Below are positions 1 to 58,942 of a stretch of DNA of 58,942 bases, in pieces. The first letter of the stretch is position 1. The number at the start of each line of letters is the position of its first letter. Both the position numbers and the translations under genes were made by a program. This stretch comes from a virus (taxonomy: Duplodnaviria; Caudoviricetes): positions 1 through 58,942 of IMG/VR virus record IMGVR_UViG_3300037722_000252. The stretch is one strand, 5' to 3'. The notes under the pieces are model-generated. The model was not told the DNA's origin. It did not search any database and saw only the letters and a list, made by a program, of their open reading frames with translations.

Positions 1-141
1 CACCCACTCATCGCCGGCCCCGTCGTCGTCCTCTACCGTGTAGGCCCCCGTTCCTCCGGCTGGGTCGTCGATCGAGCCAGTGACGACTGGTGTGCCGACC
101 GCCGACCACGCCGTCAGGTCGTCGGATGTGATGAGGTTCGT
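1..141. repeat. Terminal overlap, copy 1 (matches 58802-58942); indicates a circular contig
   Basis: 141 bp identical except 127 T vs 58928 C; one reading frame runs across the junction. Confidence 0.97.
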
Positions 142-762
142 GCGCGCGGCCTCGACAAGCGAAGTCGGCCTCTTGAACAGGCCGACTGTTGAATCGTAGA
201 GCCACTCTGTCCTCAGGATATCGGCCGCAGCCGACTGGAGCACTCCAGCCTCGTCCGTGTACGGCCCGACCGCACCCGTCCGCGTGAACACCTGGCCAGC
301 CATCGCCTGGCCCGCTCGCCAGTAGAACAGTGGCTCCTCGAGCAGCGCCCTCCACGAGCCGCCGTCGATGCGACGGAGGCGGACGTCGACCTGGCAGCGA
401 TTGTCGAACCAGAGATCCGGGTCCGTCTGGATCTCGCCCGCGCTCACCATCACGCACGGAAACGACAGACTCGGGTTGGCGAGCGACGGGAAGTATTCGA
501 GTGCGGCCTTGCGCCTACCGGCTGCGATGAAGCGTTCAAGCGAGTCTGGGTTGCCGTCGAATCGCAGCGTGCCTGACAGGTCGGAGACGCCCGACCCGAT
601 CGCGATTGCTCTGACACTCGTAAGGTCCGCCGACCAATGCTCGTGTACTTGCTGCACCGGGTTCGCGACCGGCCGACGGATCTTCGCGCCGAGATAGTGC
701 AGGTAGCTCTGCCCGTTCTCGGTCCACCGGAACGCGGCGTCCTGCTTGACGGGCGCGCTCAT
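1..762 (-). CDS. Tail-tip/spike-fibre structural protein, N-terminal part (continues at 58801-57914; about 549 aa total)
   Basis: Not in the ORF track. ATG at 762 overlaps the TMP stop (ATGA); open to position 1 (MSAPVKQDAAFRWTENG...FTRTGAVGPYTDEAGVLQSAAADILR...VEAARTNLI), a motif typical of phage spike/fibre proteins. Confidence 0.8.
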   Translation of the reverse strand, partial: MSAPVKQDAAFRWTENGQSYLHYLGAKIRRPVANPVQQVHEHWSADLTSVRAIAIGSGVSDLSGTLRFDGNPDSLERFIAAGRRKAALEYFPSLANPSLSFPCVMVSAGEIQTDPDLWFDNRCQVDVRLRRIDGGSWRALLEEPLFYWRAGQAMAGQVFTRTGAVGPYTDEAGVLQSAAADILRTEWLYDSTVGLFKRPTSLVEAARTNLITSDDLTAWSAVGTPVVTGSIDDPAGGTGAYTVEDDDGAGDEWV

Positions 763-2687
763 GCGGGCTGCGGCCGGAAGCCGCCCTCCTCAGCCGTGCG
801 GAACGCCTCGACGATCGCACGCACCCACTGCTGGTCGCGCGCGAAGCTCATCGGGTCACGGGCAGGCGGCACGTTGATCTGCGGCATCGCGCCGGGTGAC
901 ACCGACGCCGGCCCCCTCACCACCTCCGGCCCACGCTCACCGACGATGCCCCACTGTCCGGACGGGATGTAGCCACCCTCGGCTAACCCGCCTGCGAACG
1001 AGCCGAGAATACTGGAGATGCCTGCGATCTGACCGATGCCAGGAATCGCGAGCCCCGCGATGCTCGCCAAGGACCCAAACCGCCCGAGCGCTGAGCCGAT
1101 CTTGCCGAAGATGCCCAGCCCACCCGACGCGGCCTCGTTCGCCTCGTCCAACGCCTCGGTCGCGGCCTCGACGGCGCGCGTGTACGTCTCCCACGTGATG
1201 CGACCCGCCTGCAAATGCGCGTCGAGCACGGCTAGCGTATCGTGAAACACCTCGGTCGGCGTGCGCACCGCGAGCGTGATCTGTTCGGCCTGCCTCATCG
1301 CGTCCGTGAAACGGAGCACCGATTGACCCGCAGAATCGAACGTTTCGACGGTCAGACCGGCTAGGTGGTCGATGTCGCCGAACACGGCCGCTGCTCGCTC
1401 GCCGCCGACAGCGACGAGTTCGATGTTCGCCGCGAGCGCCGACGACGCCCCGTCGAGGTTGGTCATCTGAGGACTGAGCGCGGTCAAGCTGTCATTCAGC
1501 ACGCTAGCCGCTGGTGCCGCCCTTTCGTATCCGTCCGCAAGCTGCTTCAGGTTCTCGGGCAGCTTCTCGAACTGCTCGGGCGCGAAGTCCCGTAGTAGCG
1601 CGACGTTCAGCGCTGTCGTCGGCAGAGCCTCGTTCACTCGGTCCAATTCGTCGGCAACACCCTTGATCTTGCCGAGCGCGACGCCGAACGCCCCAGCGAG
1701 CGCAGCAAGACCAACGATGAGCCCCCCGCCTGTCGCAATCGCAGCGATGCCTCCGGCTGCCAGTACCGCGTTCAGCGCCGTCAGGCCAGCGATAACCGAG
1801 GCGAGCGAGGAGACGAGTACGCCAGCCGTGATGATGACGAGCGGGATAGCCGCCGCGATCCCGCCCAACGCGATACCCCACGCGATCGTAGAGCGGTCTA
1901 CCTCGGTCAACCCTTCCGCGAGCCTGGCCGTGATGTCGACCAGCTTCGTGACAGCCGGTAGCAGCAGGTCACCGACCGCCACACGCGCCCGGAACACCGA
2001 ATCCGTCAGGTTCTCAAACGCGTTCTTTGCGCCCGTATTGGCTCTCGGCAGACGCTCTAGCGCCGCGATCAACTTGTTCAGGAACTCCTCGGAAGAGAGC
2101 CCCAACTGATTGATCTGCTCAGGGTCGATGGTCCCAAACGCATCGCGTAGCGCAGTGGCGACGGCAGGCGCGGTCTGGATGATCGGCCGTAGGTCGTGCT
2201 GCAGCACCTTGCCGGCTGCGGCAATCTGGCTCAGCTGCACGATCACCCGATCGAGTTCGGCTCTACCCTTACCACTTAACCCAACCGCGTTGCCGAACTG
2301 CTCCAGCGCGCGGTTCGTGAGTTGGATGCGGTTGGGCATCTCTCCGAACGCGACGTTGAGCTGTAGCGCGCCCTGGATGGCTTCCCTGAAGCCAAGGCCG
2401 GGCAACTCCGCGACCCGCTCCAACACCTTGAGTTGGCCGGCCGCCGCTTCCGCCGATCCAGCCGACACCTCGAGCGCGCGCTTGAGCGCGTCCATGTCGA
2501 CCGCCGCCTTGATCGAAGCCACACCCAGCGCAGCGATCGGCGCCGTAACGGTGAGCGCCAACCGCCGGCCGACACGCTCCAGGTTCGCTCCGACGCGCTC
2601 CATCGCGCGGCTCGCATTCCGAAGCGTGCGGTCGAGTGGGCTCCAGTCACCGTCGAGGATGACTTCGGGACGAGCGAGCACCGTCAT
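759..2687 (-). CDS. Tape measure protein (642 aa)
   Basis: Ala/Gly-rich helical protein with a tape-measure domain, hydrophobic stretch and C-terminal GIVGERGPEVV; follows the chaperones. Confidence 0.93.
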   Translation of the reverse strand: MTVLARPEVILDGDWSPLDRTLRNASRAMERVGANLERVGRRLALTVTAPIAALGVASIKAAVDMDALKRALEVSAGSAEAAAGQLKVLERVAELPGLGFREAIQGALQLNVAFGEMPNRIQLTNRALEQFGNAVGLSGKGRAELDRVIVQLSQIAAAGKVLQHDLRPIIQTAPAVATALRDAFGTIDPEQINQLGLSSEEFLNKLIAALERLPRANTGAKNAFENLTDSVFRARVAVGDLLLPAVTKLVDITARLAEGLTEVDRSTIAWGIALGGIAAAIPLVIITAGVLVSSLASVIAGLTALNAVLAAGGIAAIATGGGLIVGLAALAGAFGVALGKIKGVADELDRVNEALPTTALNVALLRDFAPEQFEKLPENLKQLADGYERAAPAASVLNDSLTALSPQMTNLDGASSALAANIELVAVGGERAAAVFGDIDHLAGLTVETFDSAGQSVLRFTDAMRQAEQITLAVRTPTEVFHDTLAVLDAHLQAGRITWETYTRAVEAATEALDEANEAASGGLGIFGKIGSALGRFGSLASIAGLAIPGIGQIAGISSILGSFAGGLAEGGYIPSGQWGIVGERGPEVVRGPASVSPGAMPQINVPPARDPMSFARDQQWVRAIVEAFRTAEEGGFRPQPA

Positions 2688-10540: not shown

Positions 10541-10743
10541 TCGCCCCTCCTGCACACCGGACAGAACGCGCCCTCGTCTTCCAGGTCGGCGTAGAGCGCA
10601 GCGAAGTTGGCCGCGTTGCGCGCCTCTTCCCGAGCCTCGTCCTCAACGACGCCCTCACGCAGCAGCGCCTCCTTGAGCAGCGTGTACGTTCTCGCCCACG
10701 CTGCGGCGTTCTTGCCGAGCGCGATGAGTTGGTCGGTGTTCAA
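10537..10743 (-). CDS. Hypothetical protein with C-terminal CPVC
   Basis: Coupled to the portal stop. Confidence 0.55.
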   Translation of the reverse strand: MNTDQLIALGKNAAAWARTYTLLKEALLREGVVEDEAREEARNAANFAALYADLEDEGAFCPVCRRGE

Positions 10744-12170
10744 TCGGCCTCCTCTTCGCCTTCCGGCTCGTCACCATCGTCCACTCCCGGCAGCGGCGGC
10801 GGCTCCAATCCCTCGAACGGGCTCGGCTCGCCTTCGGCGCGGGGCAGGAGCCAGACGTTGCGCTCTTCGTCGATCTCGACGAGCACCATTGGGTCGCCCA
10901 TGATACCGGCGAGTTCCTTGGCGGTGCGTGCTCGGTTCAAGTTCGCCTCGGAGATGTCCTTCTCGGGCTCGGAGAACAGCGGCGGCCACACGACATCGTA
11001 GTCGCCGGTCGTCGGGCGAGGCAGGACGCCGAACTCGATCTGGCGGTCGATGAACCTGCGGAGGATGACCGGCTCAGCGTGGGTGGTCTGTCGGTCGGCG
11101 ATCATGCCGAGAAACGTCTTCTGGTCCTCGGTCGAGCTTCGTTCGCCGGTCTCTGAGCCGAACAACAGGCGGAGCGGGATGCCCGAGCCGGCCGATATCA
11201 GCTTCATCGCGAGCAGCGCAGCACCCGTCGGGTCGGGTTCGGAGTCCCCGACCCGCGTCAACTCGCCGCCCTGGATGAAAAACGTCTTTCGGAGCTCGTG
11301 GTAGATCTCCTGCAGGTTCTCGTCGAGCGCTTCGAGCTGGGCTGGCGTCCACCTCACGTCCGGGTCGAGCTTGGCCTGCAGCACGCCTGCGACCCGCTGC
11401 CAGAACGCCTCACCGCTCGATGCCGATATCTTCTGCAGATCGACGAGCGGGTTGTAGATCCTGCGCAGTGCCGGCTTGCCGAACACCGGGTCGTCGAGCG
11501 GATCCTCGGCGACGTGGATCACCCGTGTCGCGTGCACCTGAGCGGTGCCGGTGCGCGACGTCGAGCGAAACGTCGGCACGTTGCCGGCCAGGTCGATCTT
11601 GTACGTCTCGGGCTGGCCGTAGCGTTCGCTCGCCGGGTCGGTCACCCATCGGTCGATCTGCGCCAGTCGCTCCGAGTACAGCGACACATAGAGCAGATCT
11701 TCGGGGTCCGACATCCGAAGCGGCGGCATCGGTAGCGCCCGGTCATCACCGCCCTGGTAGCCAAGCAGGATCAACGAGTACTGGCCGATGCGCGCGAGCT
11801 TGTCGGCGGCCTCGAACTTCTGCCAGATGCCGAGCCGCTTCGCCATCGTGGCCCACGCCTCGGTGAACTCGGTGCCGTCCTCTTTGTCGGGCTCCGAGAT
11901 CAGCGGCGGCTTGCGCCACGTCGTCTCGGCGATCATGTCGACGACCCTGCCAGCGACCGGGTCGCGCTCGTACATGCCCGCGTAGTTGTTCCAGCGGAGA
12001 TCCCTTGGGTAGCCGGCGACCCGGTAGATGTCCCGGTCCCCTCCGTACTGGAGCCCGTGCGTCTGTGCGAAGGCGAGCCGGTCGACGATCTCCGACAGCA
12101 ACGCGAGCTCGGGACGCACCGGACCCTGGACCGCGCCGCTCCCGTTACGGGCCAACACCTCTGTGCTCAT
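10740..12170 (-). CDS. Portal protein (DUF1073-type)
   Basis: VHATRVIH, GIPLRLLFGSETGERSSTED, 476 aa, synteny. Confidence 0.9.
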   Translation of the reverse strand: MSTEVLARNGSGAVQGPVRPELALLSEIVDRLAFAQTHGLQYGGDRDIYRVAGYPRDLRWNNYAGMYERDPVAGRVVDMIAETTWRKPPLISEPDKEDGTEFTEAWATMAKRLGIWQKFEAADKLARIGQYSLILLGYQGGDDRALPMPPLRMSDPEDLLYVSLYSERLAQIDRWVTDPASERYGQPETYKIDLAGNVPTFRSTSRTGTAQVHATRVIHVAEDPLDDPVFGKPALRRIYNPLVDLQKISASSGEAFWQRVAGVLQAKLDPDVRWTPAQLEALDENLQEIYHELRKTFFIQGGELTRVGDSEPDPTGAALLAMKLISAGSGIPLRLLFGSETGERSSTEDQKTFLGMIADRQTTHAEPVILRRFIDRQIEFGVLPRPTTGDYDVVWPPLFSEPEKDISEANLNRARTAKELAGIMGDPMVLVEIDEERNVWLLPRAEGEPSPFEGLEPPPLPGVDDGDEPEGEEEAD

Positions 12171-25127: not shown

Positions 25128-26606
25128 TCATGCGACACCGATCCGCGCTTCGTCGCGGGCAACGAGTTCGGGGCAGTTGGCTCGCACGATGGCCGCGGCT
25201 ACGGGTGGCGAAACCGAGTTACCGACGAGGCGGACCTGTTCCGTCTTGGTCAGCTTCCGTCCTTCGGCGCCACGCTCGATTCGGTAGGAGTCGGGGAAAC
25301 CCTGGGCCCGGTAGAGTTCGCGCGGCTGAAGCATCCGCATCGCGATATCGACGATGACGTACGGCTCGCCGGCGACCTCGACGGTGACCAACCCGAGGCG
25401 GTCCTTGGTCGTCACGGTGCGGGCGGGCGAGCCAAGAGCCTGCCCGACGCCCACGCCGTAGTACGAGGACAGGAAGGCGTAGACGAGCGCGTGGCGGTCG
25501 CCGCTGGCCCCCAGCTTCGCGAGGCTGGCCGCTACGAGGCTGTTGTGGTCGATCGTGGTGACGGTCGGCGTGGGCTCGCGTAGGTCCGCGCCGTCCACGC
25601 CCGTGAAGTGCTTCGCTAGGTACGCAGCGACGAGCGCGTGTTTCGTGGAGCCGACGATAGTGCCAAGGGGAACCTGTAGATCGAGCGCGCGCGGGCCCTG
25701 ACCGTTGCGCTCCCCGTATCCGGTCTGCACGAGCGATGGGGCGATGTGGCCGACGACGTAGGGGTCGGGGGCGTCGAGGATGAATCGCCGGATGCCTGTA
25801 GCGATTCGCCGAAGCGTCGCCTCCGCGAGCGGGCGCCGCGGCGTGCCCATCTTCCAGCCTTCCGCTCGCCGCTCGCGTGCCCACGCCTTCGCCTCGTCGG
25901 GGGTCGCGAAGATCGAAAGCATCGGAACCCGCCAGTCGATGCAATCGGCGGCGGTGCGGAAGGGGAGGAGGCCCGCGCCGTGCGTCGGCTCCGGCCAGAC
26001 GATCGGATCCCTGTCGCAGCGGGCGACGAGGAAGAGGCGCTTGCGGATCGTCGGGGCACCGAAGTCGCACGCGCGAAGCTCCCGCCACTCGACTCGGTAC
26101 CCGAGACGCTCGAGTCCGCGCACGAATGCCCGGAACGTCTCACCCTTCCGCTTCGGGCAGCGTCGAAGCTCGCCCGGCGGCCCGACGAGCGGGCCCCACT
26201 CGACGAACTCCTCGACGTTCTCCAGGCAGGTGACCCGCGGCCGCACCTGTCCCGCCCACCGCTGCACGACCCACGCGAGCGCGCGACGCTTGCGGTTCCT
26301 GATCGGCTTTCCGCCCTTCGCCTTGCTGTGATCTGTGCAATCGGGACTCGCCCACAGCAGCCCGACCGGCCGGCCTCCGGTAACAACGCGGGGGTCCGCC
26401 TCGAAGACGTCGCATACGTGGTGCGTCGTCTGCGGGTGGTTGGCCATGTGCATCGACACCGCCGCCGCGTCGTGGTTGATCGCCACGTCGACCATGCGGC
26501 CCGTCGCATACTCGATGCCCAGCGACGCGCCCCCACCGCCTGCGAAGAGATCGCAGATGATCTCCTCATGCGTGTCTAAGAGGAGTTGCGAGAAACGCAC
26601 GCTCAT
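25128..26606 (-). CDS. DNA cytosine-C5 methyltransferase
   Basis: DLFAGGGG, SPDC, ENV, RKRLF, GNSV. Confidence 0.95.
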   Translation of the reverse strand: MSVRFSQLLLDTHEEIICDLFAGGGGASLGIEYATGRMVDVAINHDAAAVSMHMANHPQTTHHVCDVFEADPRVVTGGRPVGLLWASPDCTDHSKAKGGKPIRNRKRRALAWVVQRWAGQVRPRVTCLENVEEFVEWGPLVGPPGELRRCPKRKGETFRAFVRGLERLGYRVEWRELRACDFGAPTIRKRLFLVARCDRDPIVWPEPTHGAGLLPFRTAADCIDWRVPMLSIFATPDEAKAWARERRAEGWKMGTPRRPLAEATLRRIATGIRRFILDAPDPYVVGHIAPSLVQTGYGERNGQGPRALDLQVPLGTIVGSTKHALVAAYLAKHFTGVDGADLREPTPTVTTIDHNSLVAASLAKLGASGDRHALVYAFLSSYYGVGVGQALGSPARTVTTKDRLGLVTVEVAGEPYVIVDIAMRMLQPRELYRAQGFPDSYRIERGAEGRKLTKTEQVRLVGNSVSPPVAAAIVRANCPELVARDEARIGVA

Positions 26607-39556: not shown

Positions 39557-39992
39557 ACTTATCCGCCAGCGTGGCTTTCATGGCCTTGGTCCCGGCGCGG
39601 CACAGCTCGTCGAGCGGGATGAGCACTCCCCTCGTCGGGTTCTTGCTCCGCGTCATGTCCCGACGCCGTGCCGGCTTGCGGTAGGAGTGGCGACCAAGCT
39701 CCTTGAGGCGCTCGGTGGTGATGAGCACGACCATCTGGCCCTGTTCGAGGACGATGGCCCAAGCGGTCGCTTCAGTTTTGGCGATGCCGCTCGGCTCGTA
39801 CTTCTTCGTCCGCCGACTCCATGCCTCGTATTCCAGGTAGATGTTGCCGGTGTTGCAGGACTCCAGGTCGCGCTTCACTTCGATGTCGGGAGAGCCCGCC
39901 ATGAGCGAGTCGAGCAAGTCCTTGACGAAGCACTCGGCTTGCGTCCCGGCCTCGGCCGTGATGTCCCACCGAAGTTCGGGCGCGTCCATCAC
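39549..39992 (-). CDS. PD-(D/E)XK nuclease-like protein
   Basis: IEVKRD...TGNIYLE...PSGI..TEA..W. Confidence 0.65.
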   Translation of the reverse strand: MMDAPELRWDITAEAGTQAECFVKDLLDSLMAGSPDIEVKRDLESCNTGNIYLEYEAWSRRTKKYEPSGIAKTEATAWAIVLEQGQMVVLITTERLKELGRHSYRKPARRRDMTRSKNPTRGVLIPLDELCRAGTKAMKATLADKYA

Positions 39993-41050
39993 CCGGCCTC
40001 CTGCATCCACAGATCGCGGTCGGTTGCGTTGCCCCAGCAGTCCCAGCCCTCACGACCCTGCCGCGCGAATAGCTCCAGATACGGGCCGGGGCTGACCTTC
40101 TCGATCAACTCGTACATCCTGCCCGGCTTCGCGCTGTGCTTACCGCGCGGCCACTCGGCCCAACTCATTTCTGATTTCGAGCCGAACGGCGCCGAGCCCT
40201 GGACTCCGAGCAGGCAGAACTCGTGAGAGACGCGCCAGTAATTGCCCATGCCCATCTGCGGCTTGACCCAGATGAAGCACGACTTGTAGGTGAAGCCCCA
40301 CGCCTCGATGACTTCACGCGCGTCGAACAGGAACGCGTTGGTCGTCCACAGGTGCAGGTGCGCAGCGTCGGCGACCAACTCTCCGATCGGGAGCGCAGCG
40401 ATGTCGCCCACGCTCATGCCGGGGTAGTGGTCGCCCGTCGCCCCACGCGTGCCCTGGTTGCCGTACAGCCACGGCGGGTCGGCGTAGACGGTACCGAACC
40501 GCTTGCCCGTCTCGATCAGGGTGTCGAGGGCATCGTAGGCTCTCGCGGTGTCATCGCCGGTCGGCTTCTCGACCTTCACTTCACGGCGCCACTGCCGGAG
40601 CACGAAGGCGGTGGTCAACTCCTCGCCCTCGGTCGCGAGCACTTCGCGGAACCGCTCGTCCGTGAAGGCGGCGAGACGCTGCCAGCGCGACGCCTCACCA
40701 CGGGTCAACTCGGCTTCGGCGAGGGCCTCGCGGTACGGGTTGACACTTCGCCCAGCCTCGGGCGAAGTCAGGTCCGTCCGCTCGCCCTGCGCCCGCTCCA
40801 ACTCCGCGAGCATCGCCCCGCCCCGGCGCATCGCCGTGAGCTTCGCGCGGGATGCTCGGTTCTGCTCTTCCAGCGACAGCCCGGCCTGCTTCGCCAACTC
40901 GGCGACAGCGGTCGCAGCGCGCTTCACGGTCGCTGCATCCGACACTGTCTCAATGCGCTCGACCATCGCCTCGACCGTCGATACCTCGGCGAGCTCCTGA
41001 CGCCGGGCCGCGAGCGCGGCCACCTTGCCGCCCTTCTTCGCCTTACCCAT
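39989..41050 (-). CDS. MT-A70 family N6-adenine methyltransferase
   Basis: YADPPW, LHLWTT, WGFTY, HSAKP, LELFAR, WGN. Confidence 0.92.
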   Translation of the reverse strand: MGKAKKGGKVAALAARRQELAEVSTVEAMVERIETVSDAATVKRAATAVAELAKQAGLSLEEQNRASRAKLTAMRRGGAMLAELERAQGERTDLTSPEAGRSVNPYREALAEAELTRGEASRWQRLAAFTDERFREVLATEGEELTTAFVLRQWRREVKVEKPTGDDTARAYDALDTLIETGKRFGTVYADPPWLYGNQGTRGATGDHYPGMSVGDIAALPIGELVADAAHLHLWTTNAFLFDAREVIEAWGFTYKSCFIWVKPQMGMGNYWRVSHEFCLLGVQGSAPFGSKSEMSWAEWPRGKHSAKPGRMYELIEKVSPGPYLELFARQGREGWDCWGNATDRDLWMQEAG

Positions 41051-41199
41051 GCGCCCGCTCCCGCTCGACCCGCGCCGCGGCCTCAGCAGCGTATTCCGAG
41101 GCGGCCTCACGTGAGTAGCCGATCTTGATCGCAGCCGTGAACGCGGCGTTTCGTGCCAGGATGACGGCGAGCGAGGGGTGCTTGGCGGGAGGCATCGCG

Positions 41200-41421
41200 T
41201 CAGCCCTCCGTCGTGGTCGTGGCGGGCTCGGCGGCGGGTCGGCTCGCGATCCACACGTCAAGTTCCGAGCGACGAAAGCGAAGGCCGCCCGTGGGGAGCT
41301 TCACGCTCGGGATCACCCCTTCGGAGGCGTAGTTGCGCACCGTGCCTTCGGAGTAACCGAGGTAGCGCGCGGCATCCTTCGCGGTGAGGAGGCGGTCGCC
41401 TTCGTTGCCGGTATCGGTCAT
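41200..41421 (-). CDS. Cro/Xis-type HTH protein, first early gene
   Basis: LLTAKDAARYLGYSEGTVRNYASEGVIP...RFRRSEL. Confidence 0.88.
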   Translation of the reverse strand: MTDTGNEGDRLLTAKDAARYLGYSEGTVRNYASEGVIPSVKLPTGGLRFRRSELDVWIASRPAAEPATTTTEG

Positions 41422-51478: not shown

Positions 51479-51721
51479 ATGACGACGACCGCCGGCTACA
51501 TGGCGCGCGCGCTGGCTCGGGGCGAGTCACTCCCCGAGCCAGTAGCGCTGCGTCCCGAGGACATCCGCGAGTGGCGCATCGCCGAGAGCCTGACGCAAGT
51601 CCAGGCCGCGAAGATCGCAGGCGTCGGCGCGCGCGCATGGCAGCGCTGGGAGGGCGGCGAGCGCCCGATACCCGAATCGCTGCGAGACGTGCTCGCGCAC
51701 CGCTGGGGGTCCGCTCCGTAG
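51479..51721 (+). CDS. Cassette gene 3, XRE-family HTH protein
   Basis: IREWRIAESLTQVQAAKIAGVGARAWQRWEGGERPIP. Confidence 0.88.
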   Translation: MTTTAGYMARALARGESLPEPVALRPEDIREWRIAESLTQVQAAKIAGVGARAWQRWEGGERPIPESLRDVLAHRWGSAP

Positions 51722-51755
51722 GCGCGAGCAGCACGGCGACGGCGAGGCGGTCCAT
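51722..51755 (-). pseudogene. Displaced original 5' end of the spanin gene (MDRLAVAVLLA)
   Basis: ATG coupled to the upstream stop (TAATG); in frame with the spanin through the 17-bp repeat. Confidence 0.7.
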
Positions 51756-52183
51756 TACCCGTGCACGTCCGGTCGGAGCCAGTGCTGGTGCAGCATCCAG
51801 TGGAGCATGACCGCGGTCATTCCGCCGAGCAGCCATCCCTCCCAGCTCGGCACGTAGGCCGCAACGGTACGAGCCAGCAGGAACGCGATTGGGAGCGCGA
51901 CGATGTCGACGAGCCAATTCCAGCCGGTGCCCGGACGATCGTGCTTCGACAGATGCTTGACGACCCACGTCACGACCGCGGAGAGCGTCCAGCGCCAGTT
52001 CAGCCGGAGCGCGACGAACTCGCAGGGGAAGAACGCGAGCAGCGTCACGAGCGCGAAGCGTGGCCCGTGCGACTCACCGAGCCAGATGTGCGCGAGCCAC
52101 ACGTCGGCGTACCAGATCGTCCAGAGCCAGCCGAACACGAGGTGCGGAGCGTGCTTCGGCACGTAGCGCTCGGCGGTCGTCAT
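51755..52183 (-). CDS. Multi-TM membrane protein (holin candidate)
   Basis: About 4 hydrophobic segments; follows the endolysin. Confidence 0.6.
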   Translation of the reverse strand: MTTAERYVPKHAPHLVFGWLWTIWYADVWLAHIWLGESHGPRFALVTLLAFFPCEFVALRLNWRWTLSAVVTWVVKHLSKHDRPGTGWNWLVDIVALPIAFLLARTVAAYVPSWEGWLLGGMTAVMLHWMLHQHWLRPDVHG

Positions 52184-52698
52184 CCCACCTCCCCATCCCA
52201 ACAGGGATCGATGAATGTGACCCGGTAGCCGCTGTCGAGCTGCCGCGTCCGGACCGCGACCGCGTCGCCGTCGCGCTCGTTCTCGGCCGCCGTGTTGCCC
52301 TCGACGCTCGTGAACAGCGGTGAGCCGACCTTCGGGGGCCGCACCACCATGCCGATGTGGTCCCAGCGAGCGCCGCCGAAGCTGAAAAGCACAAGGAAGC
52401 CCGGACGGACGAGTTCGATCGGCACCTGTTGGGCCTGCAGCAGATCCCAGTAGTCCTGGACGTAGGCCTCGCGACGGACCGCGTCGAGCGGGTTGGCGAC
52501 TCCGAGCTGGTGGGCTGCGGTGTCGAACCCGCTTTGCACCTCCGCCGCGCACCACGGAGCGCCCTCGGGTAGCGGCGGGTCGAGATCGGCGAGCAGCATC
52601 CGGACGAACGTGCCGCGGTTGTTGCCGCCCTCCTCGCCCATGCCGAGCTTCGCGTCGCGGAGCATGCAGCCGAGGGCGGTCAACTCAAGGCCCCTCAC
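52180..52698 (-). CDS. Endolysin, CHAP-family amidase
   Basis: E.GGNNRG, PWCAA, HIGMV, VEGNT. Confidence 0.9.
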   Translation of the reverse strand: MRGLELTALGCMLRDAKLGMGEEGGNNRGTFVRMLLADLDPPLPEGAPWCAAEVQSGFDTAAHQLGVANPLDAVRREAYVQDYWDLLQAQQVPIELVRPGFLVLFSFGGARWDHIGMVVRPPKVGSPLFTSVEGNTAAENERDGDAVAVRTRQLDSGYRVTFIDPCWDGEVG

Positions 52699-52702
52699 CG
52701 TG

Positions 52703-53113
52703 CTACTTGCCCCACGGGATCAGCCCGCGCACCGACTCGAACGGCAACCGATTGCCGGCCACCATCGCGCCGAGGAACGCGGCGAGTTGCACGACCTCGG
52801 AACCGCGCGCGATCCCGCCAAGGAACGCGGCGACACACATCGCGATCCCGATCCAGCCAGTAATCGTGCGCTGCTTGCGATCCACGTCCGATGCGCGGCG
52901 CCCGTACTCGGCTTCCTGCGTCTCGATCTCTGCCATCTCAGCGTCTCCGTTGGAGTTAGCGAGCCGACGTACGATGCCGGCCGCCTTGTTCAGCGCGTTG
53001 ATTGCGTCCTCGATGTCGTCCAAGTCCCGAGGATGTGTCAGCCGACCCTTGAGCAGGCCGAGCGTCGATATCGCTACGTGCAGGTGCCCGTTGAGGTTGT
53101 TCCATACGTTCAC
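52703..53113 (-). CDS. Holin-like 2-TM protein with an N-terminal HisKA(DHp)-like helical hairpin
   Basis: GTGA-coupled start; second in-frame ATG at 52936 with GGAG; two TM segments immediately before the endolysin. Confidence 0.6.
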   Translation of the reverse strand: MNVWNNLNGHLHVAISTLGLLKGRLTHPRDLDDIEDAINALNKAAGIVRRLANSNGDAEMAEIETQEAEYGRRASDVDRKQRTITGWIGIAMCVAAFLGGIARGSEVVQLAAFLGAMVAGNRLPFESVRGLIPWGK

Positions 53114-53628
53114 GCATCCGCGCGCCTCCACGCGGCTCTCCCGAACAGGCCGAACGCAGTGAGACGCGACGCTTGGTAGGCGGCCCACCAGGGCATGAAC
53201 GCGGCGTAGTCGTCGATGCGCGCGACCATCAGAAGGTAGAAAACCGTACCGAATCCGCAGTAGACAAGCATCGGAGCCCACATCCGCGTATCCTTCGCGA
53301 CCACGAGCACAAAGACCGAACCAGCGACGGTGCCCACGATGTCCGGGCCCGCGAAGTCGGCCGTCACCGCCTGGCCGATCGACAAGCCAACGAGCAAGGC
53401 CCCGAGCGAGGGCCGACCGAGTGCCCACAAAACCAACCCGAACTGGGCAGGCGAGAGCGCGTAGTAGACCGCCCACGTCCGCGTGCCCGTCAGGTTGAGC
53501 GCGACGAGGTCGGCGATCGCGGAGAGCGCGAAAGCCGCCGCGATCATCCAGTGCCGGCCGTCCCTCGAACCGAACAGCGCGAGAACAGCCGCGGGCACGA
53601 ATGCGAGCAGGTGGGCAGCAAGCAGCAT
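53110..53628 (-). CDS. Polytopic membrane protein (about 6 TM, 172 aa)
   Basis: Almost wholly hydrophobic; TGATG-coupled. Confidence 0.75.
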   Translation of the reverse strand: MLLAAHLLAFVPAAVLALFGSRDGRHWMIAAAFALSAIADLVALNLTGTRTWAVYYALSPAQFGLVLWALGRPSLGALLVGLSIGQAVTADFAGPDIVGTVAGSVFVLVVAKDTRMWAPMLVYCGFGTVFYLLMVARIDDYAAFMPWWAAYQASRLTAFGLFGRAAWRRADA

Positions 53629-53927
53629 CAGAGGCAGTCCTGCGGCGGCCGGGGCGGGCAGGTGTAGGCCGCGTTGCCGACGTACAGCAGTTCGTCTCCG
53701 CTCCGCACGATGATCCACGCCTCGGGGTTGCCGTCGGCGTCGAGCCCGAGCTTGACGATCAGCCGGGCCTTCACTTCGCGTGCTTTCGCGATCGCGGTGT
53801 CGAGCGCGTCGCGGATTTGCACGAGCAGGATCGGATCGTCGAACCCGTAGGAGTCAGGAACGTACAGCGCGTTCTCTCGGCGCTTGACCGAGGCGCGCAT
53901 CTTCGCCAGTTCGTTGTGGTAGCTCAT
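53628..53927 (-). CDS. Hypothetical protein with C-terminal CPPRPPQDC
   Basis: 99 aa; ATGA-coupled. Confidence 0.7.
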   Translation of the reverse strand: MSYHNELAKMRASVKRRENALYVPDSYGFDDPILLVQIRDALDTAIAKAREVKARLIVKLGLDADGNPEAWIIVRSGDELLYVGNAAYTCPPRPPQDCL

Positions 53928-54283
53928 GGGATCAACCCCTTGGCATAGGTGAGTAGGTGCATCGCAAGGCTCGCGAGCGCGCTGATCGCGACCGCCCACT
54001 TGCCGTACACGGCAAGCCGCCTCTCCTCACGTTCGCCGCCTGGCCGCGCGTCGGCCAGCCTGTCCACCCTCTCCGTGAGCACGTTCACCTTGTCGCCGAC
54101 CGACAGTAGTGTGGCCACCACACCGACCTCGCCGTTGTAACCGCGCAGCGTGCGGTCGCTGCGTTCCACCACCTTTGCCACCTGCCCGAGAGTGGCGGCG
54201 TGATGCTGCACGTCGCTCGCGAGACCGGCGAGCTTCTGCCAGCCCTCCCGGTCGAGGTAGCCGTCACGACGTTCGTCGGGCAT
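53924..54283 (-). CDS. Coiled-coil protein with C-terminal TM (XhlA-like lysis accessory)
   Basis: LRGYNG..G motif, heptads, C-terminal anchor. Confidence 0.6.
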   Translation of the reverse strand: MPDERRDGYLDREGWQKLAGLASDVQHHAATLGQVAKVVERSDRTLRGYNGEVGVVATLLSVGDKVNVLTERVDRLADARPGGEREERRLAVYGKWAVAISALASLAMHLLTYAKGLIP

Positions 54284-54431
54284 CGCCACTGTCCTCGTCC
54301 TCCTGGTCGTCGGTGAACAGCCCAGCCACCTTCGCGCGCGTCGCCTCGACGGCAGCGTGCGCTTTCGAGCACGAGATCAGCGCAGCAGCCACGTCGCGCG
54401 CGGTCGGTGTCGTCCTCAGCTTCTCGGCCAT
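54264..54431 (-). CDS. Hypothetical protein (55 aa)
   Basis: GAGG RBS; MAEKLRTTPTARDV... Confidence 0.45.
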   Translation of the reverse strand: MAEKLRTTPTARDVAAALISCSKAHAAVEATRAKVAGLFTDDQEDEDSGDARRTS

Positions 54432-54522
54432 CGCCTCAGCCACGGCAGTCCTCCACGGTCACGGACATTACTGGACGTGCCCCCGTCCGCCACGCTACCC
54501 TAAGACCAGAACAGGAGGGGGT

Positions 54523-54888
54523 ATGCGCTGGACGGTGGCTTGCTTGGTGGTGCTCGCAGCGTGCGACCTGTTCGGGCCCGAGGTTCTCTTCGTGAACCGG
54601 CGGCCGATGGTACCCGTCCCGAACGTCTACGCGGAGTGGTACGCGGCTACCGAGAGGTGCCTTGTGGTATCCGGAGACTTCGGGGCAGTGCGATGGTTCC
54701 TGGCCGACAGCGTAATCATGGGCAGCACGGCGCAAGCGGGCGTGCTCCGTTTTCCGAACGAGATCACCATGTTCGCGCGCGTCGCACAAGCAGAATGGGC
54801 CGTGCGCCACGAAGCGGCGCACCACATCCTGCAACGCGGTGACGACCTTCACGGCGAGTACGGACGAGTGCCATGTGAGCACGGCTAG
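54523..54888 (+). CDS. Lipoprotein with HExxH metallopeptidase-like motif (moron)
   Basis: AGGAGG RBS; lipobox LAAC; VRHEAAHHIL...H; stop overlaps the tail gene stop (CTAG). Confidence 0.8.
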   Translation: MRWTVACLVVLAACDLFGPEVLFVNRRPMVPVPNVYAEWYAATERCLVVSGDFGAVRWFLADSVIMGSTAQAGVLRFPNEITMFARVAQAEWAVRHEAAHHILQRGDDLHGEYGRVPCEHG

Positions 54889-57800
54889 TCTGTCCCGATC
54901 AGGGCGAGGTGGGACATCTCAAGCGTCAAGTCGTCGGCGGCATCGGAGAACTGCACGGTGATGTCAACGTCCATGTCCGCCGTCGTGTCCTCGGCGAGAT
55001 CGTTGGTCACCAGTAGCACCTGATTCCCGCTCGCGTTCGTGAGTAGGATGTAGCCGCTGACGTGCTGGTCGTTCGTCGCGCCGTCGTTGAAGGCCAGTAT
55101 GGTGAAGTAGGCGATGTTCGCGATCGAGAAATTGAGAGAGACGACTTGGGTGGTGTTGAACCGCACCCGCAGCGTGCGCGATCCTGCCGGGGCGCCCTGC
55201 GCGTCAACCCGCAACTCCAAGCGCAAGCCACCGCTGGAGCCGAGCGTGTTCGCTGGAATCGTGATCGACTCAAGCGTCGTCTCGGCCGTGTCGCCGGTAT
55301 GCGAGCGGTCCGTGGTGTCCTTGTGAAACGGCCCAATGCGGCGCCCCTGCTGCGACGTCACGACAGGCCCGAGGTTACCCGCGGCGTCGGCCCCCCGGAC
55401 CTTCACATAGGCGTCTCTGCCCTGTGTGATCTTCACGCCCGTGCTGATCGTGCCCTGGCGGGTCGAGAGCGAGCCGTCGTTCGCGCCTGACGTGGGGTCC
55501 GATGGCGCGCTCCCATCACCCACCGTCACGTAGATCGCCGCAACGTCTTCGTCGCCCGCCACGCTCACGACAGCTTCGCCGTTCGCGTCGAACGTCACCT
55601 CGGGCGCGAGCGTCAGGAACTTGACGCCGCGCAAGTCGATGCCGCGGTTGGAGCGCGGGAACACGGCTCGCACGTCGGTCACTTCGCCTGCAGTGCCCGA
55701 GACTGCCGACCCGCTCCAGCCCGTGTAGGGCGTCAGCTCGACGGTGACCATCTTGCCGACGCTGAGGTTGGGAATCGTGAAGCCGCCGTCGTCGGCGTCG
55801 TAGTCCGTCTGGCTGCCGAGCGTCGGGTCGGTGTCGCGGTCGTGCACGTCGTAGCGGGTCCGCATCCCGAGCGTAGCCGCTGGCACGTCCCATGTTACCA
55901 CACCGTCATAGGCGACGATGTCGACGCGGGCCGAGTTGATCCGGGCGCGCGTCGAGAGCGCCACGTCGTCGGTCGCGTAGGCGGACCGGATTCGGTTCGG
56001 TGCGGTCGAATAGCCTCGACAATATGCGGTGCCGGTGCTCGCGTTCAGCCGGAAGCTGATCGTGCTGTTGGGTATGCCCGACCGGATGAAGTCGTACGCG
56101 CTCGGCGACGACGCGGCGGCTGTGCACTCTACGGTCGCCGTCGCACCCGCCAGCACGTCGGTGACAGTGACGTTCACGAGGTCTTCCTCGGTCACGTCCT
56201 GTGCGATGCTGAGCGTCGGGGCAGCGAGCGGCGCTGAGCCCGGCCCGAGATCGAGGTAGCCGAACACGACCGAAGTGAGCGTGAATTCGCGGAACCCCGT
56301 CAGCAGCGCGACCCTGTCGCCGGTGCGGTCGCCGGTCGCGACGTTGTACCCCTGCACCGTGTCGTGGTCGATGACCACGTAATCGCCGACTTCGACCCCG
56401 GCGTTGTCCGGCACCTTGATCTCGCCGAGCTGGGCACCGTCGCCGAACACGTCGAACAGCTCGAGCGCCACTTCTTTGATGATGCGGTCGACTTCTCCAG
56501 ACCATCGGGCCGGGCGGTCGAGGATCAGCACCGTGTCTATGGTCTGCCGCTTGTCGCCGAGCGTGGCCACGTTGTCGTTCGGTACGTTCACTGGCACTAC
56601 GACGAGTTCGTAATCGTCAGCCGGCCGGTCGTCGACGTGGATCGCGACGTTGCCGATCTTGCGAGCCGCCCGGCAGCGATACTCGACGAAGGTCACGAGC
56701 TCGGACGACGTGTGCTGCCACGAGTAGTCGCTCGCGTTGCCCGCAGTCAGCACCGTGAGTGTGCCAGGGTCGATGTTCTGCGGGAGCCGGAGTTCTTTCG
56801 GCCGCAGGTTGAGGTCCGTGCCCACGAGCGGAGCGCACCCGAACGCGCGGTAGATGTTCTCCGAGGCCCACGCGCTGCGCTCGGCGGATTCGGTGATGCG
56901 CGCCCATACGGGCCGGAGCGGCAACGCCTGGAACGCGGTCATCGCCGTAGCGTCGTAGCGCACAGCTTGGCCGCCGTAGTCGCCGTCTAAGACAGCCTGT
57001 AGCAGCACGCCCGGATGCACGCCGTTCGCGCCGCCGATATGGAGCGGCACGTTCGGGCCAAGTCGCACACCGCCCGGCCAGTAGAACCGACCCGAGACCG
57101 GGTCATTCACCTGCAGGGTATGGCCGTCGATGTAGACCCACGCGTTCAGGAGCAGGCCGCTACCCTCGGGGCTGAACTCGTCCAGCAATCCGAAGAACGT
57201 CGTGCCCGCGGGCGCGAACCCGAGCCGCTGCCGGAACCCGATGACCGTGTGGTCTTCGCCGGCGTAGCGGAACCGCAGCGCGGTGAAGTTGCCGGCCGAG
57301 TTCGCGGCGGTACCGTCTTGGTCGTTCGGCGCAACGAGATCCGACGCGAGCGCTTCGCGTAGACCGGCGGGTACCTGGCGGATGTCGGCTGGCCCCTTCT
57401 CGTCGTTGGGCCCGATCCTGACCGCGTCGCCACTGATTTCCTTGACGATGTACGTCGCCGTGCCAGCGGCGGCGCCGTCGATCCACGCGCTCGCGAGGCC
57501 GGGAGGATGAAGCTGCACGGTATCGGTGGTCCGAAAGATGTCCGTGCGCCGCTCGGCCCACCGCTCGTCTGACACCTCCAGGCTGACCCTACCGCGTCCG
57601 TCGACTTCCGACGCATGACTGATCCGGCCGACTGCAAGCGAGACGTAGCCGGCGCCGATGTCGCGCTCGATCTCGCACAGTCGCCCCAACTCCGTGAGCC
57701 GCGACCCACTCGGGAACAGTACCGTGTCGACGATGCAGTCCAGCCGGAACGGGAACGACGTGGTCGTGCCCGCGAGCAGTTGCGCGCTCGGCCCGCTGAT

Positions 57801-57917
57801 CGTCGGCACGTCCGCGATGTCGGAGATCGCCAGCGTGAGGTCCGGCGTGCCGATCGTGGTCGCGCCCCTAGCTGCGATGTTGACCTGGTACGTGGCAGTC
57901 GCGGCCGAGACGGTCAT
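54885..57917 (-). CDS. Large tail tip/hub protein with Fn3-like domains (about 1010 aa)
   Basis: Second gene after the TMP; ATGA-coupled start at 57917; beta-rich. Confidence 0.75.
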   Translation of the reverse strand: MTVSAATATYQVNIAARGATTIGTPDLTLAISDIADVPTISGPSAQLLAGTTTSFPFRLDCIVDTVLFPSGSRLTELGRLCEIERDIGAGYVSLAVGRISHASEVDGRGRVSLEVSDERWAERRTDIFRTTDTVQLHPPGLASAWIDGAAAGTATYIVKEISGDAVRIGPNDEKGPADIRQVPAGLREALASDLVAPNDQDGTAANSAGNFTALRFRYAGEDHTVIGFRQRLGFAPAGTTFFGLLDEFSPEGSGLLLNAWVYIDGHTLQVNDPVSGRFYWPGGVRLGPNVPLHIGGANGVHPGVLLQAVLDGDYGGQAVRYDATAMTAFQALPLRPVWARITESAERSAWASENIYRAFGCAPLVGTDLNLRPKELRLPQNIDPGTLTVLTAGNASDYSWQHTSSELVTFVEYRCRAARKIGNVAIHVDDRPADDYELVVVPVNVPNDNVATLGDKRQTIDTVLILDRPARWSGEVDRIIKEVALELFDVFGDGAQLGEIKVPDNAGVEVGDYVVIDHDTVQGYNVATGDRTGDRVALLTGFREFTLTSVVFGYLDLGPGSAPLAAPTLSIAQDVTEEDLVNVTVTDVLAGATATVECTAAASSPSAYDFIRSGIPNSTISFRLNASTGTAYCRGYSTAPNRIRSAYATDDVALSTRARINSARVDIVAYDGVVTWDVPAATLGMRTRYDVHDRDTDPTLGSQTDYDADDGGFTIPNLSVGKMVTVELTPYTGWSGSAVSGTAGEVTDVRAVFPRSNRGIDLRGVKFLTLAPEVTFDANGEAVVSVAGDEDVAAIYVTVGDGSAPSDPTSGANDGSLSTRQGTISTGVKITQGRDAYVKVRGADAAGNLGPVVTSQQGRRIGPFHKDTTDRSHTGDTAETTLESITIPANTLGSSGGLRLELRVDAQGAPAGSRTLRVRFNTTQVVSLNFSIANIAYFTILAFNDGATNDQHVSGYILLTNASGNQVLLVTNDLAEDTTADMDVDITVQFSDAADDLTLEMSHLALIGTD

Positions 57918-58942
57918 GCTAGCCTGCACTCGGCCAACGAGACCACGCCCGGCAGGATTGCCACCTCACGCATCGGGTTGAGCCCATGACCACTCGTACC
58001 GTCGCTGCCGATATAGAGCCGCTCGGCGGCCCACGCGTCCGTGAACGGGACCGCGCTCGACGCTGCCGTGACCGTCTCCGTCGCTCCGTTGATCGACTGT
58101 CCGATCAGCACGGAGCCGTCGGTGTTGACGACTGCTCGGATCTCGTGCGGCAATCCGAACGTCGGGCCCACGCCGAGTGTCGCCGTCTGCGGACTTACCC
58201 CGTCGTCGTGCGTGATGCCGTAGCGGTTCGAGTTCTGCCGGATCGCGATTCTCGGGTCCGCGCCTGCCGTCGCGCTGCCGATCTTGAGCAGATGGCCCGA
58301 GGTCTCCAAGTAGGTGCCGAACTCGTAGAAGCGGAGGTAGATCGTGACGCCGCCGGCGGATACAATGTGGCGGGGGCTGAACTCGAAACCAGCGTACAGC
58401 GTATCCACGTTTCGGACCTCGGACGCATCCAGGATCGAATAGCTCGGCGCGAGCGCATCGAATACGTTGACCCGATACACGTCGATTGAGCCGGTCGCGG
58501 TGGCCGTCTCGGCCGGCCGGATCCGGACCTCGTTGGTGTTGGCGGCCGTAATTGCGGTCGCGAGCCCGTAGATCACCCAGTAGCCGTTGCCCGCGTAGCG
58601 CTTGCCGAGATACGTGCCCGTCGCTGCCGTGACCGTCGGCTCGCCGGCTGTCCAACCCGTGATCTGGAGACGGAGCCGCTGCGCCGCGGCGTTCGTGTCG
58701 AACACCTGCAAGAGTTGGTTGCCGGCGCTCGCCATCGTGCGCTCGCGTACCGTGAAGCTGAACGCCTTGACCGCGTCGCCGGTGAACGTTGGAGTACGCA
58801 CCACCCACTCATCGCCGGCCCCGTCGTCGTCCTCTACCGTGTAGGCCCCCGTTCCTCCGGCTGGGTCGTCGATCGAGCCAGTGACGACTGGTGTGCCGAC
58901 CGCCGACCACGCCGTCAGGTCGTCGGACGTGATGAGGTTCGT
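57914..58942 (-). CDS. C-terminal part of the tail-tip/spike protein starting at 762 (LamG/ConA-like C-terminus)
   Basis: Frame continuous through the terminal overlap. Confidence 0.8.
   Translation of the reverse strand, partial: TNLITSDDLTAWSAVGTPVVTGSIDDPAGGTGAYTVEDDDGAGDEWVVRTPTFTGDAVKAFSFTVRERTMASAGNQLLQVFDTNAAAQRLRLQITGWTAGEPTVTAATGTYLGKRYAGNGYWVIYGLATAITAANTNEVRIRPAETATATGSIDVYRVNVFDALAPSYSILDASEVRNVDTLYAGFEFSPRHIVSAGGVTIYLRFYEFGTYLETSGHLLKIGSATAGADPRIAIRQNSNRYGITHDDGVSPQTATLGVGPTFGLPHEIRAVVNTDGSVLIGQSINGATETVTAASSAVPFTDAWAAERLYIGSDGTSGHGLNPMREVAILPGVVSLAECRLA
58802..58942. repeat. Terminal overlap, copy 2
   Basis: Matches 1-141 with one mismatch. Confidence 0.97.

Follow-up and report, generated by a model that had tools for sequence, protein, structure and literature searches.

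Background

Lysis cassettes with several genes for membrane proteins are known from phages of high GC content and are not understood. In excerpts of a survey of Gordonia phages, such cassettes hold three or four genes for proteins with transmembrane (TM) segments, along with small non-TM genes lacking a known function; among the products are holin-like proteins with two TM helices whose cytoplasmic ends exceed 40 residues, and all 46 TM proteins have one to four helices (PMC9671378). The same excerpts list LysA of phage P2 as a multi-TM antiholin encoded in the cassette (PMC9671378), an excerpted account of phage T4 describes RIII as a small cytoplasmic antiholin (PMC8385771), and an excerpt on F1 mycobacteriophages reports genetics showing two cooperating holin-like proteins, LysF1a and LysF1b (PMC13056207). 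Here we describe a locus of this kind in IMG/VR record IMGVR_UViG_3300037722_000252, an uncultivated siphovirus with a GC content of 67%. The window, meaning the whole stretch of DNA that was analysed, comprises all 58,942 bases of the record. A sequence-only reading had singled out three genes at 52703-53927, called g1, g2 and g3 below, and had proposed that they were a captured module of ligand, receptor and kinase.

The best explanation of the region, to which we assign a probability of about 0.5, is that its six genes (gA-g1-g2-g3-endolysin-g5) make up a translationally coupled lysis cassette that would serve multi-component timing and not signalling, with g3 as a dual-product holin and g1-g2 as an accessory regulator. 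The proposal of a holin bearing a kinase relic is not borne out, which takes away most of what was surprising about the locus.

Organization of the lysis cassette

The cassette is a block of six genes (gA, g1, g2, g3, g4 and g5), all on the minus strand. The junctions, read directly from the sequence, are ATGA between gA and g1, TGATG between g1 and g2, GTGA between g2 and g3, a 4-nucleotide gap between g3 and g4, and ATGA between g4 and g5. The GC content at third codon positions was 0.82-0.90 in all six chosen frames, which marks them as coding frames. The overlaps bore out the earlier statement that three translationally coupled genes stand right before an endolysin gene. That endolysin, g4 (52180..52698, minus strand), is a CHAP/NlpC-P60-like protein of 172 residues encoded downstream of g3. 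It matched endolysin PHROGs (E 1.5e-6, 1.9e-5 and 1.1e-3) and the PDB entry 4xcm, an NlpC/P60-type endopeptidase (E 0.0023), and its Pfam CHAP match was sub-threshold (E 0.071). A hydropathy scan of g4 detected no N-terminal TM, signal or signal-arrest-release (SAR) segment.

Domain structure of g3

The g3 gene (52703..53113, minus strand) encodes 136 residues and begins (M)NVWNNLNGHLHVAISTLGLLKGRLTHPRDLDDIEDAINALNKAAGIVRRL from a GTG start that overlaps the g2 stop codon. The protein starts with a helical hairpin, which a charged linker joins to two TM helices rich in glycine and alanine (approximately residues 86-102 and 107-120). The AlphaFold2 model (pLDDT 68.7) placed helices at residues 3-24, 28-53, 74-103 and 106-119, and the hydropathy scan gave hydrophobic windows at 83-108. 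By direct reading, Gly and Ala account for 8 of the 17 residues of the first TM helix and 6 of the 14 of the second, and basic residues flank the helices. Five basic residues ahead of the first TM helix place the N-terminus in the cytoplasm.

Residues 60-136 (52703..52936, minus strand) form a two-TM module of holin type, whose family consists of stand-alone proteins of 65-97 residues. An exhaustive HMMER search of 1.84 billion representative sequences with g3 returned 21 matches: g3 itself, the protein P0009, eight stand-alone relatives of the module (65-85 residues) and 11 long repeat proteins. Other stand-alone members are P0010 (91 residues) and copies in the related contigs L004 (4899-5186) and L007 (5135-5428), both of 95-97 residues, as well as in L031 and L032. 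Family members directly precede an endolysin or an open reading frame (ORF) in the endolysin position in L004, L007, L031 and L032; the neighbour was confirmed as an endolysin in L007 only (Amidase_2, E 2e-32), and the protein in this position in L004 had no Pfam match. The anatomy of the module and its place in the cassette match those of a class II holin, which is small, has two TM helices and charged ends, and adjoins the endolysin. The earlier assignment of the third gene to the holins is supported to the extent that the protein carries a two-TM module of holin type. Matches to named families were weak: a sub-threshold DUF3040 match for the family member P0018 (E 2.4e-4) and a Phage_holin_2 match for another protein, P0008 (E 0.053).

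A possible internal start lies exactly at the domain junction (52934..52948, minus strand). A GGAG at 52948-52945 is separated by an 8-nucleotide spacer from the ATG of Met60 (52936-52934), the upstream context being CAACGGAGACGCTGAG directly before ATG, and Met1 of the stand-alone family proteins aligns on Met60. As background, a Shine-Dalgarno-like word preceded 12 of the 110 internal in-frame ATGs in the window, and GGAG itself preceded six of the 110. This arrangement suggests that g3 may make both a long, regulatory product and a short product acting as holin. It makes g3 a clean natural example of a holin module that exists alone as well as behind a folded N-terminal domain, and the position of the possible start makes the idea of an antiholin that tethers through its N-terminus directly testable.

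The hairpin itself (residues 1-59; 52937..53113, minus strand) was present only in the window, in contig L006, which ends after the hairpin, and in the proteins P0008 and P0009. In the latter two it is joined, past a shared ...GDAEMAEIETQE junction, to another two-TM module, so that all three proteins that are complete have the hairpin appended on the N-terminal side of a small two-TM protein. It is 80% identical between g3 and P0009 with the hydrophobic core positions retained; judged by this conservation, the hairpin is a real, selected domain. Between the window and L006 just three of 63 codons differ, too few for synonymous and non-synonymous changes to be counted. An 86-residue protein that occupies the same slot in L004 showed no similarity to it.

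Histidine-kinase-like and repeat-like features of the hairpin

The sequence-only reading had likened the g3 N-terminus, NVWNNLNGHLHVAISTLGLLKGRLTHPRDLDDIEDAINALNKAAGIVRRL, to the DHp hairpin of histidine kinases, and neither profile nor fold evidence separates it from other helical hairpins. Both are two-helix hairpins about 55 residues long; what sets them apart is that the g3 hairpin lacks a profile match, an H-box histidine and an ATPase domain, and that its fold match is like that of dozens of unrelated hairpins. Up to an E value of 10, a Pfam hmmscan reported no HisKA family for g3 or for its isolated hairpin. With the same limit, neither HisKA (PF00512) nor HisKA_3 (PF07730) matched the window translated in six frames, in a search whose controls gave matches in 14 and 12 of 14 control genomes, respectively. 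A custom hidden Markov model (HMM) of the 21 HisKA segments of E. coli K-12, run without filters, scored the hairpin at 0.2 bits, a value equalled or beaten by 17 of 200 shuffled sequences. Alignment of the hairpin alignment to the HisKA alignment with hhalign gave a probability of 3% over 22 columns, with the H-box histidine facing Asn5, and a phmmer search of PDB sequences with g3 returned no kinase. His10 and His12 stand within GHLHV, by direct reading a pattern unlike the H-box, so that the phospho-acceptor is absent. Nor is a HATPase_c domain linked to the hairpin, the 136 residues of g3 being taken up by the hairpin and two TM helices and free of Pfam domains.

Structures were compared as well. 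With the g3 model, the Foldseek search had no match at E ≤ 0.001, and its top 50 included no kinase. An exhaustive VIA-align comparison did return two DHp domains, those of GacS (7n0e_A; Z 7.6, root mean square deviation 2.1, 56 residues aligned, 16% identity) and ERS1 (4mt8_A; Z 7.4, 58 aligned, 17% identity), but about 48 unrelated hairpins scored equally well (Z 7.2-8.3), among them the Get1 cytosolic domain, AscE, EncB, PspA and Snf7. In fold the g3 hairpin looks like a generic helical hairpin, as a DHp domain is too, and nothing here links it specifically to kinases.

If the hairpin were nonetheless a degenerate DHp domain, the trio could be a captured ligand, receptor and kinase module that gates lysis or decoys a host two-component system, for example through a heterodimer of the hairpin with the DHp domain of a host kinase. 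The DHp-appropriate size of the two-helix model, the presence of GacS and ERS1 among the fold matches, and an alignment of the g2 Atlas model to the membrane part found in a cluster of hybrid histidine kinases (TM score 0.67, a lead only) would fit such an origin. Beyond the negative profile searches, the tied DHp matches, the kinase-free Foldseek list and the missing ATPase domain, it is opposed by g1, which has no export signal, and by the failure to find bacterial homologues: a pattern-seeded scan of one genome each of 185,579 species, which can miss distant relatives, turned up relatives neither for g2 nor for the two-TM module, and none beside a sensor kinase. This kinase reading is largely refuted at the level of sequence, and we regard it as extremely unlikely.

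The hairpin is closer to one unit of a TPR-type repeat. The 11 long proteins found with g3 have 1033-1560 residues and E values of 2e-11 to 1e-3, and each matched approximately residues 21-86 of g3 in 4-11 stretches. All of the five that were scanned with Pfam contained TPR_10/TPR_12 repeats; three of these also had an nSTAND_NTPase5 domain, in two cases together with a trypsin-like domain, and a fourth had a CHAT protease domain. In a BLASTP comparison with one long protein, residues 30-85 aligned with successive repeats of about 46 residues (E 6e-7, 34% identity over 56 residues), and a second pairwise alignment had an E value of 1e-6. The similarity was strongest in helix 2 (DL..-DA-----KA-GI-RRLA), where identity reached 45%. 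The NNL and HP-D motifs of the hairpin, which had prompted the comparison with kinases, also resemble the TPR_12-type repeat pattern. Pfam TPR_10 (PF13374) had no match to the window at E ≤ 10, and hmmscan of the hairpin reported no TPR family, for which reason the hairpin is termed TPR-repeat-like and not filed as a TPR member. Outside its own small set, the only sequence relatives of the hairpin detected by these searches are the TPR-type repeats of bacterial STAND proteins.

STAND NTPases are often conflict or defence proteins, and the hairpin could accordingly be a TPR-type unit taken from such a protein that binds or misleads a host protein instead of regulating the holin. The recurrence of the match along 11 of the 21 proteins retrieved, the domains of the five scanned proteins (STAND NTPase, trypsin-like or CHAT domains in four) and the two pairwise E values are in keeping with this origin. 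The similarity might, on the other hand, be a mere helical-repeat pattern, Pfam TPR_10 does not recognize the hairpin, and one repeat unit would be a weak binding platform. We consider a host-directed role of the hairpin highly unlikely.

The g1-g2 gene pair

The co-occurrence of the genes elsewhere, which had been offered as a check of the trio, was confirmed for g1 and g2. A Cys-tailed g1-like gene lies directly upstream of g2, its stop overlapping the g2 start, in all nine contigs that show the upstream side of g2 (the window, L002, L003, L004, L005, where the g1-like gene is a 3' fragment only, L006, L007, L031 and L032). The overlap is TGATG or another 1-nucleotide overlap in six contigs and ATGA or GTGA in three. 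The endolysin beside the pair varies and is of at least three types: CHAP-like in the window, GH108 with PG_binding_3 in L002, and Amidase_2 in L003 and L007. The slot after g2 also varies, being filled by the hairpin fusion, by a helical protein with an N-terminal TM segment or by a two-TM helical protein, and the halves of g3 recur in the same cassettes as the g1-like gene and g2. By these comparisons g1-g2 is a conserved and strictly linked pair, independent of endolysin type, which has persisted while the endolysin and neighbouring holin-like genes were exchanged.

Exchange of parts was also visible at the DNA level. A mosaic block (52925..53190, minus strand) made up of the last 80 nucleotides of g2 and the g3 hairpin has 95% DNA identity to L006. 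The rest of g2 is 47% identical to its L006 counterpart as protein, and upstream of 53190 DNA identity is not detectable. This pattern is that of a sharp recombination junction within the 3' end of g2, a stretch in which conservation across the family is also highest (75% DNA identity to L004 over 73 nucleotides).

The g2 gene (53110..53628, minus strand) encodes an integral membrane protein of 172 residues. Its description as a multi-TM protein was correct, and the number of about six segments was too low: the AlphaFold2 model (pLDDT 79.7, pTM 0.76) is a compact bundle of seven helices, two of which the hydropathy scan fuses. In our reading of the loops by the positive-inside rule, the protein has its N-terminus outside and its C-terminus inside. 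No part is better conserved than the end of TM7 (WWxAYQASRLxAFGLFGRAAWR). In the family alignments P12, F33, S36, A69, W148, Y151, Q152, R155 and A158 are invariant, and conservation peaks at the end of helix 7 (W148, Y151, Q152, R155) and in helix 2 (F33, S36). Among 5.8 billion clustered proteins only five relatives were found; viral or metagenome loci supplied seven further copies. Nine members matched no Pfam family at E ≤ 1, YhhN (PF07947) included, and no NCBIfam family.

Fold comparison of g2 yielded generic GPCR- or rhodopsin-like bundles only, with best Foldseek E values of 0.069 against the PDB and 0.3 against BFVD. VIA-align placed 8oyx_B, a designed fold resembling G protein-coupled receptors (GPCRs), first in strength among the matches considered here (Z 13.6, root mean square deviation 3.0, 168 residues aligned), and gave about 12 to GPRC5D, GPR156 and mGlu membrane domains (class C GPCRs), Z values that are usual among helical bundles. 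With class C GPCRs, microbial rhodopsins and designed GPCR-like folds g2 shares the seven-helix up-down arrangement, whereas it is far smaller and only 7-12% identical, so the likeness is one of shape and not of kinship. The Atlas leads were YhhN-like proteins (TM score 0.73) and the hybrid-kinase membrane part already mentioned; all feature scores were below 0.9, too low to name the protein, and YhhN was not among the 50 VIA-align rows shown.

Matches of this kind leave some room for a pair that has nothing to do with lysis and acts in superinfection exclusion, ion or metal handling or YhhN-like lipid modification, g1 and g2 being passengers in a late operon. Besides the YhhN-like lead, the fold of g2 has matches to actinophage 7-TM 'membrane protein' entries and to hemolysin-III/PAQR-type proteins, and the Cys pair of g1 might bind metal. 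All fold matches are weak, however, and none of the nine g2 members carries a YhhN or other family signal. The pair always lies within the cassette, overlapping its neighbours between gA and holin-type genes, despite the swapping of everything else. We judge this explanation unlikely.

The g1 gene (53628..53927, minus strand; start overlapping the gA stop) encodes a soluble protein of 99 residues that ends ...AAYTCPPRPPQDCL. It has neither a TM segment nor a signal peptide (maximum hydropathy 0.83), which speaks against the ligand role once proposed for it. Pfam, PHROG and NCBIfam searches with g1 gave no match, and Atlas yielded nothing usable. The only close homologue is P0017 (54% identity); further homologues are found in L004 and L007. 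The C-terminal tail TCPPRPPQDCL (53631..53663, minus strand), pointed out in the sequence-only reading as a possible disulfide loop, was read directly and proved to be a conserved Cys-Pro...Cys end. In an alignment of six sequences that are otherwise 20-54% identical (alignment A5), only six columns are invariant, N85, C90 and P91 among them. The pattern in proteins at the g1 position is ...N-x-x-x-x-C-P-[PI], with a second Cys three or seven residues further on in every copy: CPPRPPEDC in P0017 and the L005 fragment, where the gene likewise ends ...FAYTCPPRPPEDCI; CPPLPPEAC in L004; CPPFPPEDC in L007; CPPNC in L006 and L032; CPPAC in L031; and CPIFC in L002 and L003.

Outside the tail, the g1-position proteins of other contigs are barely alignable, and the match of g1 to the L002 upstream protein was confined to it (E 0.11). 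In L031 (3274-3501), L032 (3280-3501) and L006 (1206-1454) the protein at this position has, instead of the soluble part, a Trp-rich hydrophobic N-terminal helix (RYWWWALTDILAMLWMFVVASV), judged for L031 and L032 by direct reading. These versions keep the TCPPxC end, by which the tail appears to be the constant functional element. Comparison of the copies indicates that conservation of the tail exceeds chance.

The prominence of the pair raises the question of whether g2, and not g3, might be the main hole-forming or envelope-acting protein, with g1 as its cytoplasmic inhibitor, in the manner of T4 RIII acting on holin T, and g3 as an auxiliary. The pair is the most conserved part of the cassette, present in all nine contigs against a changing endolysin and a changing gene after g2; g2 has a basic cytoplasmic tail and conserved polar residues within the membrane (D40, Q62, Y151, Q152 and R155); and g4, having no signal segment, needs a passage through the membrane. 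A small cytoplasmic antiholin has a precedent in RIII, as excerpted above (PMC8385771). Against such a role, all 46 lysis-cassette TM proteins in the Gordonia survey have one to four TM helices (PMC9671378), and the g2 model, a confident one, shows a monomeric, closed 7-TM bundle that rather resembles a receptor, a transporter or an enzyme. A hole-forming g2 is likewise not probable in our estimation.

Proposed mechanism

In the lysis cassette that we favour, g3 would be a class-II-type holin-family protein with two TM helices and both termini in the cytoplasm. Its core, residues 60-136, would carry a 59-residue cytoplasmic hairpin of TPR-repeat character. The short product starting at Met60 would be the active, membrane-permeabilizing form. 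In the long product the folded hairpin may hold the first Gly/Ala-rich TM helix or bind a partner, and this form would then act as an antiholin-like brake that delays hole formation. Such a protein would apply the dual-start principle of lambda S107/S105 and phage 21 S71/S68 at the scale of a whole domain. The g1 and g2 proteins, probably produced in fixed proportion as an obligately linked pair, would work together at the inner membrane, as accessory regulators of the time at which the holin fires, the type of endolysin being immaterial. Gating of lysis timing by the trio, which the sequence-only reading had also envisaged, is a reasonable hypothesis.

Several points weigh against this explanation. 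Contact between g1 and g2 is something we infer from gene linkage alone; prediction of their complex scored 0.00 against a mark of 0.32, in a run without controls that counts neither for nor against binding. The roles of the g3, g1 and g2 families in lysis are predictions. A two-TM pinholin would need an endolysin with a SAR or signal segment; as g4 has none, either g5, g2 or gA would have to release it or g3 would have to make large holes. We know of no holin or antiholin that resembles the well-packed 7-TM bundle of g2. Searches of Pfam, PHROG and NCBIfam assigned g3 to no curated holin family. Because Pfam TPR_10 misses the window, the description of the hairpin as TPR-like comes from its similarity to one repeat subtype, and because Shine-Dalgarno-like words are not rare before internal ATGs (12 of 110), the Met60 start is suggestive only. 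A spanin-like pair was not seen in the window.

In a more far-reaching version, g1-g2 could represent an undescribed type of lysis controller, a sensor-gated clock unlike the purely concentration-driven clock of lambda. Here g2 would be a receptor-like inner-membrane protein built as a compact bundle of seven helices, with g1 as its obligate partner, and the Cys-Pro...Cys tail of g1 would be a redox- or metal-sensitive latch. The pair might sense membrane potential, redox state or a small molecule and then release or restrain the holin, for which the TPR-like hairpin of g3 would serve as docking site. We hold this version to be distinctly unlikely.

Flanking genes and genome context

The first gene of the overlapping block, gA (53924..54289, minus strand), encodes a tail-anchored protein of 121 residues with a helical or coiled N-terminal part that includes an LRGxNGxxGV motif and one C-terminal TM segment (hydrophobic window 92-116). 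Homologues hold the same position in five loci (L004, L007, L031, L032 and L006), and no Pfam, PHROG or NCBIfam family was matched. The last gene, g5 (51755..52183, minus strand; start overlapping the g4 stop), encodes a Trp-rich membrane protein of 142 residues with about four TM segments by direct reading and three hydrophobic windows by hydropathy. It had no Pfam, PHROG or NCBIfam match; a homologue in L031 (4895-5290) follows the gene in the endolysin position (52% identity, E 1e-31). The g5 protein could be a candidate large-hole holin. Its C-terminus reads ...HxHWLRPDVHG. Neither g5 nor the g3 hairpin was found in four related virus records, which are 39-74% complete.

Spanins were also considered. 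The g1 protein has no hydrophobic N-terminus or lipobox, a PHROG search of the window gave no spanin family, and the helical parts of gA and g3 are cytoplasmic by direct reading under the positive-inside rule, unlike the periplasmic coiled coil of an i-spanin. Right after the g5 homologue of L031 (5287-5904) lies a 205-residue protein whose N-terminus is signal-like, whose middle is long and helical and whose C-terminal end is hydrophobic. This layout recalls a spanin, and the window has no counterpart at the same place.

The record is about 85% complete by estimate and has a GC content of 65-71% along its entire length. It encodes a portal protein (10740-12170, minus strand) and a tape-measure protein (759-2687), which indicate a siphovirus. 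In gene order the cassette comes after the tail genes (tape measure and portal) and after a 1014-residue ORF (54885-57929), the end of which resembles a large ORF preceding the cassette in L004. The gene order is circularly permuted, with the tape-measure gene at the left end (window 1-2687) and the lysis cassette at the right end, where the big minus-strand ORFs of 54885-58942 are presumably more tail genes, without PHROG match. Among 50,697 phage records the best match of the portal was to Halorubrum phage Hardycor1 (35% identity), followed by Brevundimonas phages (30%). With relatives divided between a haloarchaeal virus and Brevundimonas phages, assignment of a host is impossible. The haloarchaeal match is odd for a phage of 67% GC with amidase and GH108 endolysins in the lysis cassettes of its relatives.

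Between the 1014-residue ORF and the cassette, on the opposite strand, lies a gene for a small predicted lipoprotein (54523-54888, plus strand, inside ORF 54109-54888) whose signal reads ...VVLAAC and which carries VRHEAAHHILQ, a metalloprotease-like motif. At the same place in L004 (2630-3013, minus strand) stands a homologue with the motif VRHEMVHHILQ and no Pfam family. Two DNA methyltransferase genes were also found, at 25128-26606 and at 39989-41254 (minus strand), with PHROG E values of 9e-100 and 8e-59.

An Rfam scan of 51500-54600 found no RNA families, and a promoter and terminator scan gave a result not above that for shuffled sequences. Neither blastn with 51700-58900 nor tblastn with g1, g2, g3 and g4 found any match in the 50,697 GenBank phage records. 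Scans of viral contigs for close relatives with the single proteins g3, g2 and P0008 also returned nothing; alignment queries were needed.

Comparison with known lysis systems

The closest parallels to g3 are the dual-start holins S105/S107 of lambda and S68/S71 of phage 21, in which one ORF has two in-frame starts and the longer product is restraining, as is proposed for g3. The known N-terminal extensions of dual-start holins are of two to three residues. The extension of g3, in contrast, is a folded domain of 59 residues, g3 has no sequence similarity to these holins, and g4 has no SAR segment. With the phage 21 holin g3 also shares the two TM helices; that holin, in the excerpts of the survey, starts with both termini inside and has a weakly hydrophobic first helix (PMC9671378).

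The two-TM holin-like proteins of actinophages, such as gp61 of ChisanaKitsune, gp56 of DalanDe and gp66 of Clawz among Gordonia phages, gp11 of mycobacteriophage D29 and LysF1a/LysF1b of cluster F1, are similar in build: in the accounts excerpted, they have 135-179 residues, two TM helices and cytoplasmic domains, at the N- or the C-terminus, with more than 40 residues, some with coiled coils (PMC9671378; PMC13056207). A sequence relationship to the cassette is undetectable, however, and the excerpted part of the survey contains no 7-TM protein like g2 and no Cys-tailed protein like g1. Narrow full-text searches of the literature likewise turned up no account of a lysis cassette with a 7-TM protein or a partner with a Cys tail; the one match to 'seven transmembrane' concerned, in the excerpt retrieved, an immunity-region gene (PMC5679791).

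The antiholins of T4 (RI and RIII, acting on holin T) and P2 (LysA) resemble g1 and g2 in being encoded by separate small genes, and in the excerpted sources those of T4 and P2 set the time of lysis by binding the holin. They show no homology to g1 or g2, and g1-g2 differs from them in being a fixed two-gene unit whose role in timing is putative. The TPR_10/TPR_12 repeats of STAND proteins, which align with residues 30-85 of g3, differ from the hairpin in that the latter amounts to about one unit only and is fused to a membrane module.

Set against these systems, this multi-component lysis cassette is new in two respects: a holin-type protein has a domain-sized N-terminal extension and, probably, an internal start, and g1-g2 is a conserved pair that provides a defined new component for study.

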